Position numbers and translations under genes: made by a program | Origin: Chiloscyllium plagiosum | Taxonomy: Eukaryota | Length of the DNA: 64,000 nt | Reading direction: 5' to 3' | NCBI RefSeq assembly: GCF_004010195.1 | Contig: NC_057718.1 | Location: 55,901,862-55,965,861 of the forward strand | Shown: one piece after another, positions 566 to 59,097 of the stretch | How positions within the stretch are numbered: position 1 is the first letter of the stretch | How the letters are laid out: every line of letters begins with the position of its first letter | The notes under the pieces: generated by a model | The model's input: the letters and a program-made list of their open reading frames with translations, nothing else | Database searches by the model: none | Told to the model about the DNA's origin: nothing

Positions 566-692
566 GCTATGACAGTGATGTTGCAAAAGAGAAGTCCATC
601 GATTACACAACCAAGATCTATGCAGTTAGTATCAGGGAGATGTCAGGCACAAAGCCACATCTTCAACCAAAAGAAGTCTCAACAGAAGAAAG
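566..692 (+). CDS. EML6: EML6-like coding exon (127 nt): (G)YDSDVAKEKSIDYTTKIYAVSIREMSGTKPHLQPKEVSTEE(R)
   Basis: tttttctag acceptor and AG|gtacat donor. The peptide closely resembles the recalled vertebrate EML6 linker GYDSDVAREKAIDYTTKIYAVSIREM and is less like EML5. Phase 1 in, phase 2 out. Confidence 0.92.
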
Positions 693-1982
693 GTACATTA
701 TTGCTTTGAAAATCCACCTTATTGGCAATGTTGATTATATCGTGTAAAAGTTAATAATTGTTCTCATTTTTATTACACTTTGGTTTAGTTCTTTTGCATG
801 TTCTTAATGGAAAATTTTATCATCTATATTTTCCACAGAAAATTCACAGCACAAATTAAATAATACTTCTTAGATATTCTAATAGTTTGAACACTCTTAG
901 AATAAACATAACTGTCTTAAACCTTAACAACTTTACATTACTTGAGGTATATAAACAATGTTCTTTATTTTAGGACAGATTTCATGCATAAACAAAAACT
1001 TACTGAACATATTTAATATTTTGCATCTACAACAGTCTCAACAGTTTTTCAAACTAAATTTTAGGATCTGCAGTGGATTTTTAATTCTTATTCAACATAC
1101 AAGCCATTACATGTGGCAAAAGGAAACTAACATACCAACATGTCACTCCAACATTTAATAAATCTGAAGAACAGAATAGTTGTAGGAGAAAATATTTGTG
1201 AGGGCTATGAATGAAGAAGATTATTAAAGATAGAAGCCAAAGCATGGTAGCCTTTGGCAAGTTTGTTAAAGGAAAGGACATGAGTTGTGAGGGAAATACT
1301 TGGTGCATTTTTCAGAAAAATGGCATTACTCAATTTCCACTCTGACCACTCAAACCAATGTGGTATTTCATGAAATCCTATTATGAGAATTTGGCTATCT
1401 ATGCCAATTCACAATGCTTCCCAGAAGTTAACATTGTGCCTTACTTACAATGAAGTGCAGCAAAGCTTTAGACCATGACTGACAATGATTGATCTTGCAT
1501 GTGCCAATCCAATCCTGTTTGGTACTTAAGTATTCTTTGATCAGTTGTCACAACTCTGCACTGCTTTCCTGCAGACCAAGACATTATGAAGGCAAATCCC
1601 CAATTCAACAACTGTAAAATTTCTTGATAGCATCCATTTACATGCCTTAGAATTATATTTATAAGATGTAATATGTTTAATTTTTTTTTAAAAAAAAGCA
1701 TTGCAAATATTTGTATGATTCTTGGGGTTTATTTTGGAAAATTTATGCTGGAATCCAGTTAGTAGTTATTGCTATTCAGTGATTTTGACTGACAGTTGTT
1801 CTTATGTACACAACGGATAAGAGGTGTTGTGGTGCAATGTATAGTCTCCTTTCTTCTGACTGAGTTCTGAGTTTCAGTCCACTCCAAGACTTAATGGTCA
1901 TGGAAAGTGCATTCGTAACATAGCCGAAAAACTTCACTCTCAATGTGTGGACCCTTCCACAATACCAGTGGCAGGTAGTTAT

Positions 1983-3141
1983 GCAAAGTTTGTGAAGGTT
2001 TGTAGCTCAGGTTGAGGTTTAGGGTGTAGGTTTGCTCGCTGAGCTGTAGGTTTGATATCCAGACATTTCATTACCTGGCTAGGTAACATCAGTGGCGACC
2101 TCCAAGTGAAGCGAAGGATCTTAGTAGACTGGCTGTCATTTCTGAAACTTCTTTGGTGTATGGTAAGGTGGTTAGGGTTTCTGGCTGTGTTTGATCTGCT
2201 TATTGTGGTTTGTTCTTGAGGAATCTGCGCACTGTATTTTTTGAGTATCCATTCTTCTTGAATACGTTGTATAGGTGGTTCTCCTCTGTTTTCCAAAGTT
2301 CATCTGTGCTGCAGTTTGTGGTGGCTCGTTGGAATAGTGTTCTCATACAGCTTTGTTTGTGTGTGTTGGGATGGTTGCTGGTGTAGTTAAGTATTTGGTC
2401 AGTGTTTGTCAGTTTTCTGTAGTTCTTCATTGTCCTTTCTTTCGACTGTGATGTCCAGGAATGCGAGTCTCAAGAACAAACCACGACAAGCAGACCAAAC
2501 ACAGCCAGAAACCCTAATCACCTTACCATACATCAAAAAAGTTTCAGAAATGACAGCCAGACTACTAAGACCCCTCGGAATCCTAGTAGCACACAAACCC
2601 ACCAACACTCTCAGACAAAGACTAACAAACTTAAAAGACCCAGTACAACCCATGGACAAAACCAACGGCTTCTCCAAAATTCCATGCAAGGACTGCCACA
2701 AACACTATATAGGACAAACAGGAAGAAAGTTAGCCACCAGGATACACGAACACCAGCTAGCCACAAAAATACATGATCCTCTCTCCCTCGTAGCCCTACA
2801 CACAGATGAAAAAAAACACCATTTCGACTGGGGTAACACATCTATCCTGGGACTGGCTAAGCAAAGACATGCCAGAGAATTCCTAGAGGCCTGGCACTCC
2901 AACCACAATGCCATAAACAAACATATAGATCTAGATACCATCTATTAACCCCTTAGAAAACGAACAGGAAATGACATCACCACAAACCCCAGGAACCCCA
3001 TCCAGGACAAACATATAAATAGAAAGCAGGAGACAACAGCTTCGCTTCACTTGGAGGTCGCCACTGATGATGTTACCTAGCCAGGTAATGAAATGTCTGG
3101 ATATCAAACCTACAGCTCAGCGAGCAAACCTACACCCTAAA
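1983..3141 (+). mobile_element. Penelope-like element (Poseidon type), 5'-truncated, with inverted 5' segment and GIY-YIG endonuclease
   Basis: ORF 2406..2948 has IPCKDC-HYIGQTGRKLATRIHEH. About 2010-2116 is the reverse complement of about 3038-3140. 12-bp TSD GCAGGTAGTTAT at 1971-1982 and 3142-3153. Confidence 0.9.
3061..3100 (+). ncRNA. Minimal type I hammerhead ribozyme motif in a PLE terminal repeat (slightly decayed)
   Basis: CCA-CTGATGA-t-GTTACC-tagcca-GGTAAT-GAAA-tGTC-TGG, with helix I CCA/TGG. Confidence 0.7.
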
Positions 3142-3329
3142 GCAGGTAGTTATAACAGAAGAATCTCCTGGTCATTCCTGCTTAATGTGGGGTGGTGATT
3201 CTCAAGTTATATCTCCTAGAAGCAGGTTCATAATTTGTTTCAGGAAAAAGAACAGATACAAGAACCAACATAAGCACAAGCTTTGTCTCCCACGTAGACC
3301 GCAAGGTGTGGAAAGGGAACAGAAGAACA

Positions 3330-4362
3330 CATCTGCTCAATCCAGGCCTCTCAATATTTTGTGTTTCAATTAGATCTCTCCTTTTCCTTCTAAACTCCAA
3401 GTACTGAACCACCCTGAAACCGCTTCTCATATGACAAGCTTTTCATCCCTGGAATTATTCTCATAAACCTCTCTGTACCCCCTCCAACAACAGTACATCC
3501 TTCCTTAGATATAGATCCCAAAACTGCATGTAATACTCCACGTGCGGTCTGACCAGAGCCTTATACATCCTCAGCAGTATCCTTCTGTTCAATATTACAT
3601 TTGCCCTCCTAACTGTGAACTGAACCTGCATGTCAATCTTAAGAGAATCCTGAACTCGGCATCCCAAGTCCCTTTGTGCTTCAGATTTCTGTAGCCTTTC
3701 CCATTTAGAGAATGAGAGAAAGTGAGGACTGCAGATGCTAGAGAGTCAGAGTCAAAAAGCGTGGTGCTGGAAAATCACAGCAGGTCAGGCAGCATCCGAG
3801 GAGCAGGAGAGTTGACATTTTAGGCATAAACCCTTCATTAGGAATGCTTCATCATGCCTGACCTGCTGTGCTTTTCCAGCACCACATGTTTTGGCCCATT
3901 TAGAAAATAGTCTATGCCTCTGTTCTTCCTACCAAAGTGTATAACCTCACATTTTCCCACATTGTATTCCATCTGCCACTTCCTTGTCCACTCTCCAAGC
4001 CTGTCCAAGTCCTCTGCAGCATACCTGCTACCTCAGCACTTCCTGCCCTCCACCTATCTTTATGTCATCTGCAAACCTAGCAACAATTCCCTCAGTTCCT
4101 TCAGCCAGTCATTAAAGTATAACATGAATAGTTACATAGCCTTGTGGAACTCCACTAGTTACCAGCTGCCATCCAAAAAAATACCTGTTTATCCTCTGCC
4201 TTCAGTCAGTCAGTCAATCCTTTAACCATGCCAGTACCTTGCCCCTAATCTATGAGTTCTTATCTTGTTTAGCAGCCTCCTGTGTAGAACCTTGTCAAAG
4301 GCCTTCTGGAAATACAAATAGATCGCATCCACTAACTTTTCTTTGTCTAATTTGCTTGTTCC
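3330..4362 (-). mobile_element. CR1 LINE 3' RT fragment, interrupted by a PLE-derived short element
   Basis: ORF 3461..3667 has LRMYKALVRPHVEY...LEGVQR, typical of the CR1 ORF2 C-terminus. Confidence 0.85.
3714..3894 (-). mobile_element. Short Neptune-type PLE terminal-repeat insertion (family A, decayed hammerhead)
   Basis: aaagtgaggactgcagatgct...cagcaggtcaggcagcatccgaggagcagg. TSD CCCATTTAGA(G/A)AAT at 3700-3713 and 3895-3908. Confidence 0.75.
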
Positions 4363-5524
4363 AAGGACAAGCAGAGAAAATTTTGAACAATGCATATTGT
4401 GTAAAGAGAGCTTACGGAAGTATCGTATATTTTGATATTTGGTATAGAATTAAGAGCTTTACTCATGATTAATACAATATCTGGAAATTCTGAAATTAAA
4501 GTGTTCTTCAATGAAATAGATTTAAGTAGTCTTGAAATAAATTTGTAGTTGGTAATTAGGAAGTAATAATTCTTTGTTTCACTTTGCTGCTTAAATGAAT
4601 TGACAGTTTTTTTAGTGAAAAATCTTTAAGGTCAGTTACTAAACAACTCTTTTGCTGTGATGTGATTAAAGATATACTGATTTGAATTTTTTTCCATTGT
4701 TGCATTTGCAACATTTGAATTCTATTCAAAGAACATCCTTCAAATCAAATCTATCTATTCTATTGCTCTAAACGTTTTGTTTGATGTTTTGAATAGTATA
4801 GTAGTATGCGAAAACACTGTAGTTGTTAACTCCGTTACTGAATGCTTTGAATACGAAGTGTCGGTAAAATTAATAGATTTCTATGTTCAAGTATCTCTAG
4901 GCTGCTGCTTCTGCTGTAAATAAATCAGCATTTAAATTAGTCTGCTGACCATGTTTTGACAAATATTATTTCAACTAGTAAACTGCCTGACTACAACTCT
5001 CTGATATCTGTAATATAAAAATGCTGCACAGTAATAAAAAGTGATGGATTTATATCGAAGTAGATGATCAACATGAATTTGTTTCTCCTCATGATTAAGT
5101 CTAAACCATACTTGATTTCAAATAACAAAAATCCACCATTTCATTTCACACAAATCAAGAATTTCAAGTGTTAAGCTACATCAGCGTAACACATTCAAGA
5201 TAGTATCAATGTCATCAGACTGTCTTGTAACGTGGCAAAGCACACTGATTAAAATGTTGGTGTCCGACTCCTTGCTACAGATTTAATTATTACCAGCATT
5301 AGCTAACAGTAGACTTAAGCTATCTTGCCTACTGAATAAGATTATACAAATTTGAATAAAGTAAATAAAATGACACAAATGTCTTCCTCACCTGTTTAGC
5401 AAATTTTCTACCTGAAAACAGATCTCTTAATAGATTCAGTCATTGTGCAATTACTTTAAAAATTTGAACATTTGCTAAGAAACACTTAATATTGTATTAT
5501 GTTTTAACTTGCTTTCCTTTGGAG

Positions 5525-5539
5525 GCAGGGAATTGTCAA
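5525..5539 (+). CDS. EML6: Candidate 15-nt alternative microexon GCAGGGAATTGTCAA, (R)QGIV(K)
   Basis: ttgctttcctttggag|...|gtaagt. It preserves frame in the phase-2 intron and resembles the recalled EML5 insert RQGVVRGSR. Confidence 0.75.
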
Positions 5540-5949
5540 GTAAGTATTATGTGTATATTTAATTATAAATATAATTTTATAATTCTATATTATATTAATA
5601 TAAAAACATTGTCACTGTATATTATATTGTGCATTCTGGTTTTGACATTTTGACACAATAAAATATCTTTGAGTTTTCTTAAAATATAGTGTATTGTATT
5701 GTTATCATTAAAGGGATTGAAAATACTTCAAAAGATATTTGAACTTCCATTGAGAGCTGAAAAAATACACAAGATTTCATACTCTAAAATTTTGTAAAAC
5801 AACTGACTGAAAGTGCTATTGATTGCATACTATTTTATTTTGTGTAGGCAACTTTTATTTTGAACTACAGAAAAGAACATTCCTCTAGACTTACTACATA
5901 TTACACCATGGAATGACAATTCTCATAACTTGTTCCCAGCATCCAAAGG

Positions 5950-6200
5950 ATTTCTGCATCCCCACTTTGTCAAGCAAGAACATAGAGTGACTATCTCTAA
6001 GTGCTTTCCACAGATTTTGGAGAGTTTCTAAAACCCTTCACCCAGTACCACTCTCTTACGAACAGCACTATGGATGCATATAAGCCCCAAAGATTGCAGA
6101 CACTCAAGAAAGCAGCTTAACACTCAGCTTCTCAAGTGCAATTTGGGATGGGCAATAAAAGCTGGCCTAGCCAGTGATGACCATATCCTGAAAATAAATG
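5950..6200 (+). mobile_element. L2-group LINE/SINE 3' tail
   Basis: cttctcaag...gggatgggcaataaa.gctggcc; the same tail occurs reversed near 12985-13090 and 18890-19000. Confidence 0.55.
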
Positions 6201-6559
6201 GGAAAAATATATGAAAGCCCATTCATATCATTCTTCTCATGCTAGCATGAATTTCCTGGAATCCTGTGATGGCTGCAGAATGTGTCTAAATCTCTCCCAC
6301 ATCAGACTATGGTGCCTTGAAAAGGCAAATAGCCTTTTCCCTCTGACAGATCTTCTACTGTCTATCTGAGACACTCATTTATTTCTAGGAACATCTGTAA
6401 CCTGATCTCAAAATTGAGTTCTACTGCTATCTTCCTCCTAGCAACATGAAACAAATTACCCTTTCATCCAGGGAGAGTAGTTGATGATTGGCTATTCTTG
6501 ACATTAATTGTATTGGAGCTTAGAAATAAATAGACAGTTTTCAAAAATGCAACATTAGG

Positions 6560-6972
6560 AGACAATCAACCTACTCATTGAGAACTGAGATTGCTGAGAA
6601 AATATGTTCAGTTCCCTCATCTAAATTATTAGTAGACATTGTGAATAACTGGGGTCCAACTATTGATCCATGCTGTACATCACTGGGTGTCACTTGGAAA
6701 ATGGTCTATTTATTCCTCATGTTTGTTTCCTTTCTGCCAGCCAGTTCTCAATCCATTATACCCAACCCCATGAATTTTAATTTTGCATGCTCATCTCTTA
6801 TTGGGACCTTAGTGAAACCATTCTGAAAGTCCAATAAAGCACGTTTACTTGTTCCCCTTTATCTACTCAACTAGTTAGATCCTCAAACTTCCAGTAAATT
6901 TGCAAAGCATGATTTTCCTTTCATAAAGCCATGCTGACTCTGCCCAATCCTGTCACTGTTTTCCAAATGCTG
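6560..6972 (-). mobile_element. Degenerate CR1 RT fragments
   Basis: Reverse-strand SQHGFMKGKSC and LDFQ motifs. Confidence 0.65.
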
Positions 6973-8042
6973 AGAGAAAGTAAAAATGAGGTGCAAAATG
7001 ATACTGACAGTGCACTGGTGCTGACTGCTTTAGCTATGTTAGTTTATGGAGGCCTGCCTTCTTGCCTTGCTCTATACTTGCAGAATTGTACTCACTCAAA
7101 TTAAGCATTACCAATTGTCTCTCCATAATGGAGAGTTGGCTGTATGATGTTTTGTGAACTGTAGCTAATTATTTAGAATCAGATATAATACATTGCAAAA
7201 TTTCTCCAGATTAATACTTCCCTATAATTCATCCAGTCTTCAACCACTTGGTTACAGCCCTAGTAACTTGCTATTACTTTCTAATTTATCAATATTTAGA
7301 GATTAATCTATGAATACCATGTTTGGTAATTATCCAGAAAAACCTGTAAGAAAATTCTTGTAAGGTATACAAACATTCTTTCATAGTTTGAAAGATGAAA
7401 AATTACAACATATGTTAATTTAATTTTACCTTACCTACATTAAGTAATGTATGGTAAAATTAAGTTGAGAAATACTGCATAGTTCTTCATCTTTCAGACT
7501 ATGAAAAAATTTTTGGATATAGAGTCATAGAGATGTACAGCACAGAACAAGAATTTTCATACAGGATTTTTTTGGATAGGTTCCCTAAGGAATAGTTACT
7601 TTGATTAAATATACTAATTACACCAGCAGCTGCCAGTTACTTTCTTCTATGATTCTATTATTTAATAATTTAGTATTATTCACCTTTTCATTTCAGAAAT
7701 TGCAAGTGCAGTAAGTATTATTGAGTACTGATTATTGAGGGTTACATGAACCCAGTGCTCATAGGAAGCATTGACATAGCTTCCTCTTTGTTTCCTCCTT
7801 ATTTTATAGGAGCTTAGTGCAGAATTTTCCCAGTGATATCAGGGTATGGGTTTTCTGAATTTGTAGACTGGTACAATCTGATTTTTGGTTTTATTTGCTG
7901 GCATGATTGAGAAGCATGGTTTGTGCAATACAGGAATGTTGGTTGAAACTGATGAAAATGCTTGTGCATGTGTTCAGTTATTTTACATAATTTTCCTAAT
8001 TATACTAATTCTTTTCACTTAAATTTATTTGCTGCTGTCAAG

Positions 8043-8051
8043 GGGATCCAG
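8043..8051 (+). CDS. EML6: Candidate 9-nt alternative microexon GGGATCCAG, adding GS(R)
   Basis: tactaat branch-like site near 8003, tttgctgctgtcaag acceptor, CAG|gtacat donor. In frame; completes QGIVK-GSR. Confidence 0.7.
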
Positions 8052-10329
8052 GTACATCACCAGTCTTATTTTCTAAATTTTCAGTAGTTCGTATCCTGAA
8101 TGTGTTGTGTAAAAATAACTCTATATACTTTCATTGTTCACATTACTCCATTAGTAAATATGAACATTTGGATTGTATAAAAACAGAATGATTAGCCACT
8201 GTTTCATTTATAGGCCAATATTGTTGATTACAAGAAGCTTTAAAATAATCTCTATTGACTGGACCAAACAAGGTTAAGCAAGGAACTAAGAGAGGTGCTC
8301 AGGGTTAAGATTACTTTCACTGATCATTGACTTGGTAATAACTGAATATAAGTCCAATATTGCTCCCATATATGCAGGAAGGGTGATCCAAGATCTAAGA
8401 AAGAAATTTAATACCTCATAGAAAGCCAACAAAGCACCAAATTACATGAGTTGCACTAGAAAGCCGTGTCCTTTAGGATAAATCTCAGTAATGTTCCTTG
8501 TCTAGTTACACATTAAAGATAGGTGTTCAGGGGTACTTTGCTGGCTTAGGGCCAACAAAGCTTGGTGGGCTGAATTGACACTCTATGTTCATAGGGGGAG
8601 TTAAGTAATGGGAAACATGTGGAGAGTAGGTGGTTGGGAATTAAAATCAAGAGCAATAGTAGCCCATATTTTCTTTCTTGGGCTTCACTAATGGGGAGCA
8701 TAGCTATGCGGCAATGTAGTGGACTTATTACCATTAAGTTTTACAAAAGCAAAATATTGCAAATGCTGGAAATCTGAAATTAAATGTAATTTACTTTAAA
8801 CTGGAACTACTCAGTCCAGATATCTCTGTTTCTTGTTTCACAGATGCTATCTGTTACTTGCCAATAAACTTGAGGGGAAATGGCAGGTCTGATAGCAAGC
8901 AGAAGACTTGGAAGTCTGAATTTCCCCACATATGGCTTTTAGCTGGGTCAGGTTCCTGTCTGGAAGTTAGCCGAACTGACAAACATGGTTTCCAATCAGG
9001 CTGATTGGTCTAATGCCCAGTCTCACATTTTGTAGATACAAGCAAGCATTCCTGCTCCTCCTCATTCACTGCATGCTATGAAGGGACCAGCCGTTTCCTC
9101 ATGGCTGAGCTGGCCACAAGTACTGAATCCGCCAGGTTTCCCGAGGCTCAGGAAGCCCATATACCAATGTTATAGCACAAAAGTAGATTAAATTTAGGTT
9201 GTCCAGTCTTACTAACTCTTCTGACATGTTAAACCTCCATGGAATAGTTTCACTGTCTGTTCTTAACCATGTGAACCCCAGAAGTTGATGGGTCCAATGC
9301 AGCTTTAAGTACTCAATTGGTTACCCATTTCATCACCATCTGAACTTAATCTCACCTCCTCACCCCCCCCCCCCCCCCCCCCGTTAAGATTTCTCCGTAC
9401 ATTTTAATAGAAAAAGCTAGTTTAAGTAAATGCAAAGGCATGGAAGGAACAAAAGGAAAAGTCTGACATAAGATGGAAAACAGGAGTTATAAAATGACAT
9501 TAAGAGACAAAGTAAGATAAAGGAAAGTAGTCATGGCACAAATAAAGAAATAAAATTGGATCTCAAAGAGGTGTAAATGACAACAGCAGAAAGGCAGCCA
9601 CTATCAAAAACTTTGGTTAATTTTGGGTTGACTTCTTGTTTGAATGACATTTTGGTTACTTATACAACATTTGTTTCACAGCGAACACACATATTTAAGT
9701 AGCAGGTCTTCAATAAAAGGATGTGCACTGTGTCTTCTTATTAGAATAATATTATTTCCATCTTCAAACTTAAATGAATTTTGCATATTTATAGCCTTGC
9801 AGAGACTGAGGTTCGAGTATTTTGGAAGAAGTAAATGACATGAAACTAAACTCAAAGTGCAAGAACAAAACAGATTCTGAAACTAAATGGTGAAGTTGTA
9901 CAGCACCTGAGAACTTGCTAATAAGTGAGGTGTTTGGAAGCAGAGTGCCCAAATGACACTTTAAGCCACATTTACCAAAGTAGTGGCCAGATTTGGTGCA
10001 GGTTATGTGCAATCTACAGGTGGTGCAAAGAGATGCATGATAAACTAAAAGAATATACCAAAGAAAAACATCCTAATGATACAGTTGTTATGGACAAAAC
10101 CAGATTTCCTCTATGGAGACAACCTCGACCGTAACTTTTATATTTTTGAAAAAGATAAGTGTAAGTCTCTCTGTTCCAGATATGATTTGATTGGTCCACC
10201 ACTAAGCTTTAATTAAAACACTTTTTAAATCGAGAGTTTTTCCAAATCTTGATCTCTAGTTAGTAATAAACCACACAATGAATTTATCAGGCAGTTGCAC
10301 AGTTACATTTTCTGTCAATTTATTTGCAG

Positions 10330-10408
10330 ACCACCAGTCAGCAGAGCCACTCCTCAACCAGAGAAACTACAAAAGAATAATCTTAACAAGAAGAAAAAAT
10401 TGGTGGAG
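10330..10408 (+). CDS. EML6: EML6-like coding exon (79 nt): (R)PPVSRATPQPEKLQKNNLNKKKKLVE
   Basis: tttgcag acceptor and GAG|gtaacc donor. Phase 2 in matches the previous exon; phase 0 out. Confidence 0.92.
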
Positions 10409-11069: not shown

Positions 11070-11290
11070 CAGTAGCTCACTGGCTGAATGGCTGGTTTGT
11101 AATGTGTAATAACGCCAGTAGCATGGGTTCAATTCTCAAAGTGGCTGAGGTTACCATGAAAGATTGTCCTTCTCAACCTCTCCCCTTGCAAGAGGTGTGG
11201 TGACCCTCAAGTTAAACCCCCACCAGTCATCTCTCTCTCTCAAGTGAGAGAACAACCCTATGGTCTGGGAGGATATGGTGATTTTACCTT
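11070..11290 (+). mobile_element. tRNA-derived SINE (non-HE1)
   Basis: A-box-like tagctcactgg and B-box-like gggttcaattc. Related pieces at about 23362-23460, 25000-25112 and 22226-22300 (-). Confidence 0.65.
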
Positions 11291-12933
11291 CCTAATTTAT
11301 ACGGAAGTTTAATTTAAATGTTTCACTAAACTTCTAACACACCTGTTAGTCAGAGTTATAAACGTCTACAGTATAGGAAAAGGCCCTTCAGACTATCGAG
11401 TCTGCACAGGTCCAAACAAGCACCTAACTATTCTAATTTCTCTGTATTCATGCGTGGATAACATACTATCATTTGACCATCTTTATAAATTGGACACCCA
11501 GGATTTCTAGGGGCTGAGTTGCATTTGGAAGATAATTGCCGTAAGGAAATTGTTCGCAGAATTTTCTTGCCACTTCTCTTTTTGGCCCCAGATTTTGTTC
11601 CTAGGTTGGGTGCACAGAATCAGGAGAAATTGTGGCTTATCAAACCTGATCATTAAAAATGGCCACCTGCACTTCCCATTTTTAGCTGGGCCAAACAGTT
11701 TGGATTGGGAGTCAGGCCACTTGGCAGACTGGCAATTCGCAAGACAGGCTGAGTGGAAAGCCAGCCTGGAGGCTCAGGCAATGGATTATGAGTTTAAAAA
11801 TAAAGATTCAAATATCATCTGGTTGAAAGGGGACCTGATTGAAGCATGTAAGTTTATGATTGGTGTGGATGGGGTGGATAGGGAAGAAAAGCACAGCAGG
11901 TCAGGCAGCATCCGAGGAGCAGGAAAATCGACGTTTCGGGCTCTTCATCAGGAATATAGGCAGGAAGCCTCCGGGGTGGAGAGATATCCCTGGAGGCTTC
12001 CTATCTCTATTCCTGATGAAGGGCTTTTGCTCAAAACGTCGATTTTCCTGCTCCTTGGATGCTGCCTGACCTGCTGTGCTTTTCCAGCACCATTCTGATC
12101 TAAACTCTGGTTTCCAGCATCTGCAGTCCTCACTTTTTCCTGGATAGGGAACAGATCTGGAATGCACTGCCCAGGAGTTCAGTGTGTGGCAGGAAATGTC
12201 ACAATCTTTAAAAGGTACATGGATGAGCACTTAAAATGTCATTACATTCAAGGCTATGGGCCAAATTCTGAAGAGTGGAATTGGTGTACATAGTTCAGTG
12301 CAGACTCAATAGGCTGAAGGCCTCTTGTGTGCTTATCACCCTACAATTCTATCTTTCCTGCTCTCACCAATCATTCCCCATGCCACATTCATGCCAACCC
12401 ATATCAACCTGCACGGTCCCTCAACCCCATGCCAACCAGTGCCCTGTACCTGCCCCCACAACCCATGCCAGCGATTGCTGTTATATCAACTCCCAATGGC
12501 CCCCTTATGGCTCATGCATACAGTCATCCCCATGGCTGTTGATAGCCCTTATGCCAACTCAATGCAAACTCATATCTCTCAACTTTGTGGCTTTCTTCTC
12601 CATGTCAACTCACATTATGCAGCTTGAATGTAACTCAGGAAGTATCCTGACAGAAAAGAATGTTATAAATCTATTGATGATGTAATTATTGAAAGGAATT
12701 CTCATTCATAATTTGAGAAATCAGTCTAGAGTATAGATTGTATGATGATTTTTTGTGAACAGGTACCTTCAAATTACTAATTTTACCTTCCTAATTTATA
12801 TGGAAATTTTAATTTAAATGTTTCACTAAACTTCTAACACATCTGTTAGTCAGAGTTATAAACGTCTACAGTATAGGAAAAGGCCCTTCAGACTATCGAG
12901 TCTGCACAGGTCCAAAACAAGCACCTAACTATT
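11281..12933 (+). repeat. ~152-bp direct repeat (11281-11432 and 12780-12933)
   Basis: Near-identical copies ttttaccttcctaatttata...caagcacctaactatt with a few substitutions and indels. Confidence 0.9.
11886..12140. mobile_element. Fold-back PLE terminal-repeat insertion (family A) with two opposed hammerhead motifs
   Basis: Arms at about 11886-11976 and 11988-12084 are reverse complements. 11-bp TSD TGGATAGGGAA at 11875-11885 and 12141-12151. Confidence 0.85.
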
Positions 12934-13429
12934 TTTTTAGGAAGTTCTTTGAAACTCTTGACAGTCTAAAAGGATTTTGTTTCATTTATTCACTCATGGC
13001 ACATGAGCATTGCTGGTTGCCAGCATTTATTGTCTATTCTTACTTTCCCTTCAGAATGTGGTGAGTTGCCTTCTTGAATCTCCACAGTCCACACAGTAGG
13101 TTGATCCAGGATACTGAATGGCTTGGTGGTGTTCCCATGTATCTGCTACCCTTATCTTAGATGGAAGTGGTAAGGGGTTTGGAAGGAGCTGTTTAAAGAT
13201 CTTTGACGAATTTCTGCATGGATCTTTATAAACAGTACACCCTGCTGTTACCGAGCATCAGTGATGGAAGAAGTGAGTGCTTGTGGATGGGATGCCGGTC
13301 AAATTTCTTGAGTGTTGTTTGAGCTGACCCCATCCAGGTAAGTTTGGAGTATTTCATCACACTCCTGACTTGTACCTTGTAGCTGCTGGACAAGATTTGG
13401 AGAGACAGGTGATGAGTTACCAAGCTAGT

Positions 13430-47178: not shown

Positions 47179-47308
47179 GAAATTGCCTTAGAACATGTGT
47201 TTGGATACAGAGGCTTTGACTGCCGCAACAACCTTCATTATCTCAATGATGGGACTGATATTGTTTTTCACACAGCTGCTGCTGGCATTGTTCAGAACCT
47301 GTCATCAG
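47179..47308 (+). CDS. EML6: EML6-like coding exon (130 nt), HELP motif: EIALEHVFGYRGFDCRNNLHYLNDGTDIVFHTAAAGIVQNLSS(G)
   Basis: tttttctttcag acceptor and CAG|gtaata donor. VFGYRGxDCRNNL is the EMAP HELP signature; lies inside ORF 46966..47319. Confidence 0.95.

Positions 47309-47957: not shown

Positions 47958-48134
<177 letters not shown>

Positions 48135-56577: not shown

Positions 56578-56838
<261 letters not shown>

Positions 56839-58571: not shown

Positions 58572-59097
<526 letters not shown>

Follow-up and report, generated by a model that had tools for sequence, protein, structure and literature searches.

A conserved 9-nt cassette microexon ahead of the third TAPE unit of Chiloscyllium plagiosum EML6

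The EML6 gene of Chiloscyllium plagiosum contains a 9-nt in-frame cassette microexon that adds the residues G-S-R to the protein, and this exon is real, ancient, already annotated and an ordinary member of a well-known microexon class. In the preferred reading, to which we give a probability of roughly 0.65, the exon would be included mainly in neurons or photoreceptors through SRRM3/4, and would modulate how long and how highly charged the linker ahead of the third TAPE unit is, a linker predicted to be disordered.

Host gene and annotated isoforms

The window, by which is meant the whole stretch of 64,000 nt of C. plagiosum DNA that was analysed, carries seven exons that could be joined to public protein models (Table 1). 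The best matches of the exon preceding the microexon cluster are named EML6, with 100% identity to C. plagiosum EML6 (XP_043551898.1), and by this comparison the host gene is EML6 and not EML5. The EML6 protein gives three matches to Pfam HELP and three to each of the two EML propeller models, which indicates three HELP-TAPE units. The seven exons, including that of 9 nt, translate into an exact 275-aa piece of isoform X2 (XP_043551899.1), and the six exons without it into an exact 272-aa piece of isoform X3 (XP_043551900.1). Isoform X2 equals X3 with only GSR added, and X1 (XP_043551898.1) equals X3 with only QGIVKGSR added; in these automated gene models the 9-nt exon is included in X1 and X2 and skipped in X3. 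Because X1 and X2 contain GSR, the exon is already annotated in public RefSeq models. RefSeq isoform sets of this kind are usually based on RNA-seq alignments. Between the PPVSR exon and the one that carries the third HELP motif lies an intron of 36.8 kb (10409-47178); repeat-like stretches occur in it and in the upstream intron, and a near-identical stretch of about 150 nt was noticed by eye twice within it, at about 11283-11435 and 12782-12935.

Table 1. Exons and splicing signals of EML6 located in the window.
Feature	Position	Strand	Basis
Upstream exon (YDSD...VSTEE), phase 2 end	566-692	+	100% identity; exact spliced match
Candidate third cassette microexon, 24 nt, S-FFSEKSL-R	4607-4630	+	skate/catshark EML6 inserts; site scan
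15-nt cassette microexon (QGIVK)	5525-5539	+	sequence; in RefSeq isoform X1; counterpart human EML5 HsaEX0022381
TGCATG, RBFOX-type motif upstream of 9-nt exon	7965-7970	+	sequence motif match
Likely branch point TACTAAT, 40 nt 5' of 9-nt exon	8003-8009	+	consensus match only
T-rich polypyrimidine tract	8010-8029	+	sequence
TGCTGC: UGC motifs of the SRRM3/4-target type, 3' of the tract and 5' of the AG	8030-8035	+	offsets; available part of 10.1101/2024.09.17.613571
Acceptor AAG of 9-nt exon	8040-8042	+	sequence
9-nt cassette microexon (G-S-R)	8043-8051	+	exact match to RefSeq X2 (XP_043551899.1); EML6/EML5 conservation
Donor GTACAT of 9-nt exon	8052-8057	+	sequence
Downstream exon (PPVSR...KKKKLVE)	10330-10408	+	sequence; exact spliced match
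Exon with third HELP motif	47179-47308	+	tblastn; exact spliced match
Further EML6 exons	47968-48066, 56645-56818, 58877-59085	+	tblastn; exact spliced match

Splice signals and reading frame

The exon, read from the window as GGGATCCAG, lies between AAG and GTACAT, is of phase 2 on both sides with AG and GT flanks, and falls inside the 3–27 nt range of microexons. Phase 2 is found at all junctions of the upstream exon, the 15-nt exon, the 9-nt exon and the downstream exon, so that every combination stays in frame. A sequence-only reading of the same DNA had placed the TGCATG, the TACTAAT, the T-rich tract, the TGCTGC, the AAG and the GTACAT exactly where they are found, and its translations for all four ways of combining the 15-nt exon with that of 9 nt were reproduced. 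When the interval 693-10329 was scanned, R-G-S-R, the insert that orthologues carry, was encoded by a single one of 36 AG-N9-GT sites, that at 8043.

On the acceptor side, the pyrimidine fraction is 0.71 between -35 and -5, TGC triplets stand at offsets -13 and -10, and no AG other than that of the acceptor occurs in the 63 nt that precede it; a second CTAAT-type site lies 49 nt before the exon. The donor, CAG/GTACAT, compared with the consensus position by position and not by a splice-strength score, agrees with it at -3 to +3 and at +6 and departs from it at +4 and +5. The same donor hexamer follows the upstream exon (693-698). Because the plus strand of the window holds 34 copies of TGCATG, which gives a chance of about 5% of finding one in any given 100 nt, the copy upstream of the exon is weak evidence on its own. 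GCATG occurs upstream at 7901, 7914 and 7966, and none is present within 300 nt downstream. According to the available part of PMC9303857, RBFOX binding on the upstream side of an exon should repress its inclusion; the motif named in the sequence-only reading lies on that side.

Conservation in EML6, EML5 and lamprey proteins

The linker junction was tallied at the protein level in 304 proteins, counted as isoform records and not as independent species, 23 of which had no upstream anchor. The EML6 bin comprised 226; 34 of these had no downstream anchor, being fragments with intron read-through or models that were truncated or frameshifted, leaving 192 that could be scored. No insert was present in 133 of these, QGIVKGSR in 22, QGIVK only in 11, GSR only in four and some other string in 22; GSR forms the end of the insert in 36 of the 192. 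In the 40 EML5 records, QG[VI]VRGSR is found 19 times and QG[VI]VR only three times, 18 records have no insert, and GSR alone does not occur. An exon of this kind is represented, at the protein level, in orthologues of both genes, and the EML5 string given in the earlier reading is correct. The 15 lamprey records comprise two from Petromyzon marinus with GTR at the same junction, 11 without insert and two with an unrelated string. The two sea lamprey GTR models (P0236, P0237) are UniRef/nr records, and GTR is absent from the NCBI-listed lamprey models inspected. Distant homologues such as P0305 and P0325 have the linker without insert, each cluster being seen through one representative.

GSR is unchanged in both paralogues, in EML6 from cartilaginous fishes and in EML5 from teleosts up to mammals, and by this comparison the 9-nt exon is common to jawed vertebrates. 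Because GSR is found in both paralogues and GTR at the lamprey junction, the 9-nt exon likely predates the split between EML5 and EML6; the conserved peptides suggest that both the 15-nt and the 9-nt exons are likely older than this duplication, and that the 9-nt exon is probably older than the lamprey split as well.

Neighbouring cassettes and the number of isoforms

In the earlier reading, the 9-nt exon and its 15-nt neighbour were proposed to be distinct microexons, each included or skipped irrespective of the other. Models with GSR only are known from C. plagiosum, Polypterus (bichir) and two killifishes (Cyprinodon and Fundulus), and models with QGIVK only from teleosts and amphibians, none of the latter kind being found in cartilaginous fishes among the 192 scorable EML6 records. 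The existence of both kinds across species supports independent use, as far as protein models can indicate it. Of the four linker isoforms predicted at the same time, the forms with +0, +3 and +8 residues exist in the C. plagiosum models listed (15 of 36 cluster members), but the +5 form is not among them.

Skate and catshark EML6 models carry an extra insert of eight residues ahead of QGIVK. When 29 AG-N24-GT sites of the window, outside a short range around the 15-nt exon, were scored against the inserts annotated in skate and catshark, the site of the 24-nt candidate in Table 1 came out best, with 33 against 10 for the next; its flanks are AG and GTCAGT, and TGCTGC stands at -22/-19. An AG inside this candidate, at 4614-4615, could give an in-frame form of 15 nt. 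The exons of the window are exact pieces of X2 and X3, and X1 and X2 carry the 9-nt exon. Neither the +5 form nor FFSEKSL of the 24-nt candidate occurs in X1, X2 or X3. EML6 models that are frameshifted and truncated after EER occur in catshark (P0102, P0109), bichir (P0286) and shad (P0012); these may come from an alternative acceptor of the 15-nt exon, displaced by 4 nt and yielding a poison isoform, or may be alignment slips. Because of the 24-nt candidate and the shifted-acceptor models, a total of four isoforms is likely an undercount, and more than four products would be expected.

Some records carry strings of other kinds at this junction. The odd inserts of P0101, P0020, P0049 and P0170 (LLLSRGSR, ELSNSSFR, YGVVRGSR and LIDWSSR) resemble misplaced microexon calls; LLLSR is the translation of the intron right before the 9-nt exon, which suggests that the TGCTG context is common to this shark and Hemiscyllium. 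Amphibian EML6 models (P0168, P0271, P0274, P0275, P0279, P0280, P0284 and P0303) contain some 36 additional residues here, together with either or both microexons, and this insert is possibly an extension of the upstream exon.

Splicing regulation

The targets of SRRM3/4 are described, in the portion of 10.1101/2024.09.17.613571 that was available, as having branch point and polypyrimidine tract at a distance from the AG and UGC motifs in the gap. These features are present here: UGC motifs between branch point and AG, a distal branch point (-40) and the 63-nt AG-free zone. By analogy with such targets, the weak AAG acceptor combined with the distal branch point would cause the 9-nt exon to be skipped by default, SRRM3/4 would come into play at the UGC motifs lying between these two elements, and inclusion would occur in neural and retinal tissue, a scheme that we regard as quite likely. 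The same portion of that source has the target exons tending toward strong donors, and the departure of GTACAT from the consensus at +4 and +5 may count against SRRM3/4 control. The exon is like the neural and retinal microexons (3–27 nt) governed by SRRM3/4 in length and frame, in having UGC motifs close to its acceptor and a distal branch point, in its deep conservation and in being inserted into an exposed loop; it differs from them in a donor that is not close to the consensus and in that one or two further cassettes stand in tandem with it.

Measurements of regulation exist for an exon of the sister gene. In the part of the PMC9303857 supplement that was available, the human EML5 exon with the VastDB identifier HsaEX0022381 is given as 15 nt long, next to P1336-S1339 at the same PPVS junction, and its site is mapped as coil with 80% accessibility. 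Its inclusion (PSI) is 89.3 in retina versus 9.7 in other tissues, with neural tissue given as NA, and its dPSI is +15.6 for SRRM3, +20.5, +72.7 and +28.1 for SRRM4, and 0 for MSI1. To judge from its length and site, HsaEX0022381 is presumably the QGVVR exon. It resembles the case studied here in that it occupies the same junction, preserves the frame and belongs to the sister gene, with the length of the 15-nt QGVVR exon; on the other hand, it is the 15-nt neighbour in the paralogue, and the regulation measured there does not concern the 9-nt exon, for which no row was found in the same part of the supplement.

Protein context

In X1 the residues GSR occupy positions 1339-1341, between an acidic stretch and a lysine-rich stretch, and the insert ends 29 residues before the core of the third HELP motif (1371), which agrees with the earlier placement just upstream of a HELP motif. 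Net charge from KEVS to HELP is +3, +4 and +5 for the +0, +3 and +8 forms, respectively, and inclusion of the 9-nt exon always creates R/K-G-S-R. An AlphaFold2 model of the bichir +8 linker with the third TAPE unit, built on a 60-row alignment and without the second TAPE unit, has a mean pLDDT of 83.6; residues 1-64, with the insert at 46-53, are below 50, and no strands lie over the insert. The insert is thereby predicted to sit in a disordered linker. No solved structure of EML5 or EML6 was found among 19 structure matches, and the EML1 structure 4CI8 aligns only from the HELP motif onward.

The EML1-4 proteins have, ahead of the TAPE domain, an unstructured basic segment that binds tubulin tails and is released by phosphorylation, according to the available parts of 10.1101/466979, PMC4761370 and PMC12182296. 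By analogy, GSR would raise the positive charge by one and bring in a serine flanked by basic residues, ahead of the lysine-rich stretch before HELP, and the altered charge would adjust electrostatic contact with tubulin tails or with a partner; this is the preferred function, put forward as tentative. As far as these sources were available, the EML1-4 region is likewise basic, unstructured, located right before HELP/TAPE and alternatively spliced. The likeness has its limits, in that EML5 and EML6 are without the trimerisation domain, their microtubule binding is not established, and the change considered here amounts to one to two charges. Functional expectations are tempered because the removal of 45 microexons in zebrafish gave mostly minimal phenotypes, as given in the available part of PMC12626420.

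Alternative explanations

Some chance, though a minor one, must be given to a real conserved cassette controlled by factors other than SRRM3/4, or used outside the nervous system (for example in testis, or with broad partial inclusion), with RBFOX repressing from upstream. The non-consensus donor, the TGCATG and the three upstream GCATG copies would suit such control, as would the lack of the 9-nt exon in the microexon supplements searched and the description of EML5 as high in testis and brain in the available part of PMC9037033; the UGC motifs between tract and AG and the long AG-free zone argue for SRRM3/4 instead, and so does the response of the adjacent EML5 exon to these factors in what was available of PMC9303857. 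Annotation artefact or splicing noise is the least probable explanation: the evidence does consist of automated models, several of which misplace the junction (the four odd strings given above), but these same three residues turn up in many lineages and in both paralogues, and one genomic site alone, equipped with a full acceptor, encodes them.

Two further explanations accept the exon and differ on what it does. That the peptide is of minor importance, and that the cassette cluster mainly couples the level of EML6 to splicing through frameshifted, truncated and likely degraded products, is suggested by the models that lose frame after EER in catshark, bichir and shad; we consider it very unlikely, since the constancy of GSR across the two paralogues speaks for selection on the residues themselves, and the frameshifted models may themselves be alignment slips. 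Slimmer still is the chance that the insert rebuilds structure, IVKGSRPPV being similar to the [FY][LI]RGRP[VI] that precedes HELP in single-TAPE EMLs and closing the atypical blade of the third TAPE unit. Three EML1-4-type proteins carry the RGRP motif at a nearly equal distance from the HELP core, and the atypical blade is built from N-terminal and C-terminal parts (available part of PMC4761370), but the two segments match only with a gap of two residues, and the hydrophobic residues following PV are lost. Ordered strands packed on the second propeller, as in the N-terminal part of this blade in EML1-4, were unsupported by the low-confidence, strand-free insert of the model described above, which lacked the second TAPE unit.

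Significance

No paper on the 9-nt exon was found in the literature on EML5 or EML6 combined with microexon, SRRM or splicing, so far as it was within reach (most subscription papers were not), and no relevant shark or lamprey microexon work was among the matches listed. Besides PMC9303857, the supplements covered belong to three zebrafish microexon papers, one on mouse and one on human cancer: those of PMC12626424, PMC12626420, PMC7821500 and PMC13281805 contained no eml5 or eml6 exon row in the parts covered, and those of PMC7935315 gave eml5/eml6 rows at the gene level only, with no exon row found. The exon may well be catalogued in VastDB, in subscription papers or in bioRxiv supplements.

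The exon is of modest interest in itself, being present in public gene models and belonging to a class that is well studied. Three things are added here: the age of the exon, which is common to EML5 and EML6 and probably to lamprey; its use independently of the 15-nt neighbour; and, in sharks, a candidate for a third cassette. Since the available part of 10.1101/466979 describes it as unclear whether EML5/6 bind microtubules, the natural +0, +3, +5 and +8 linkers are useful as a clean set of constructs for testing this. A wider reading, which we hold to be unlikely, is that an ancient tandem-microexon switch in EML5/EML6 creates a basic patch, open to phosphorylation, in front of the third TAPE unit, turning on or tuning microtubule binding in neurons and photoreceptors; in that reading the 9-nt exon would date from before the lamprey split, the 15-nt exon from before the EML5/EML6 duplication, and the 24-nt exon would be an addition of cartilaginous fishes. 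If true, such a switch would explain how EML5/6 could bind microtubules without the N-terminal domain of EML1-4.
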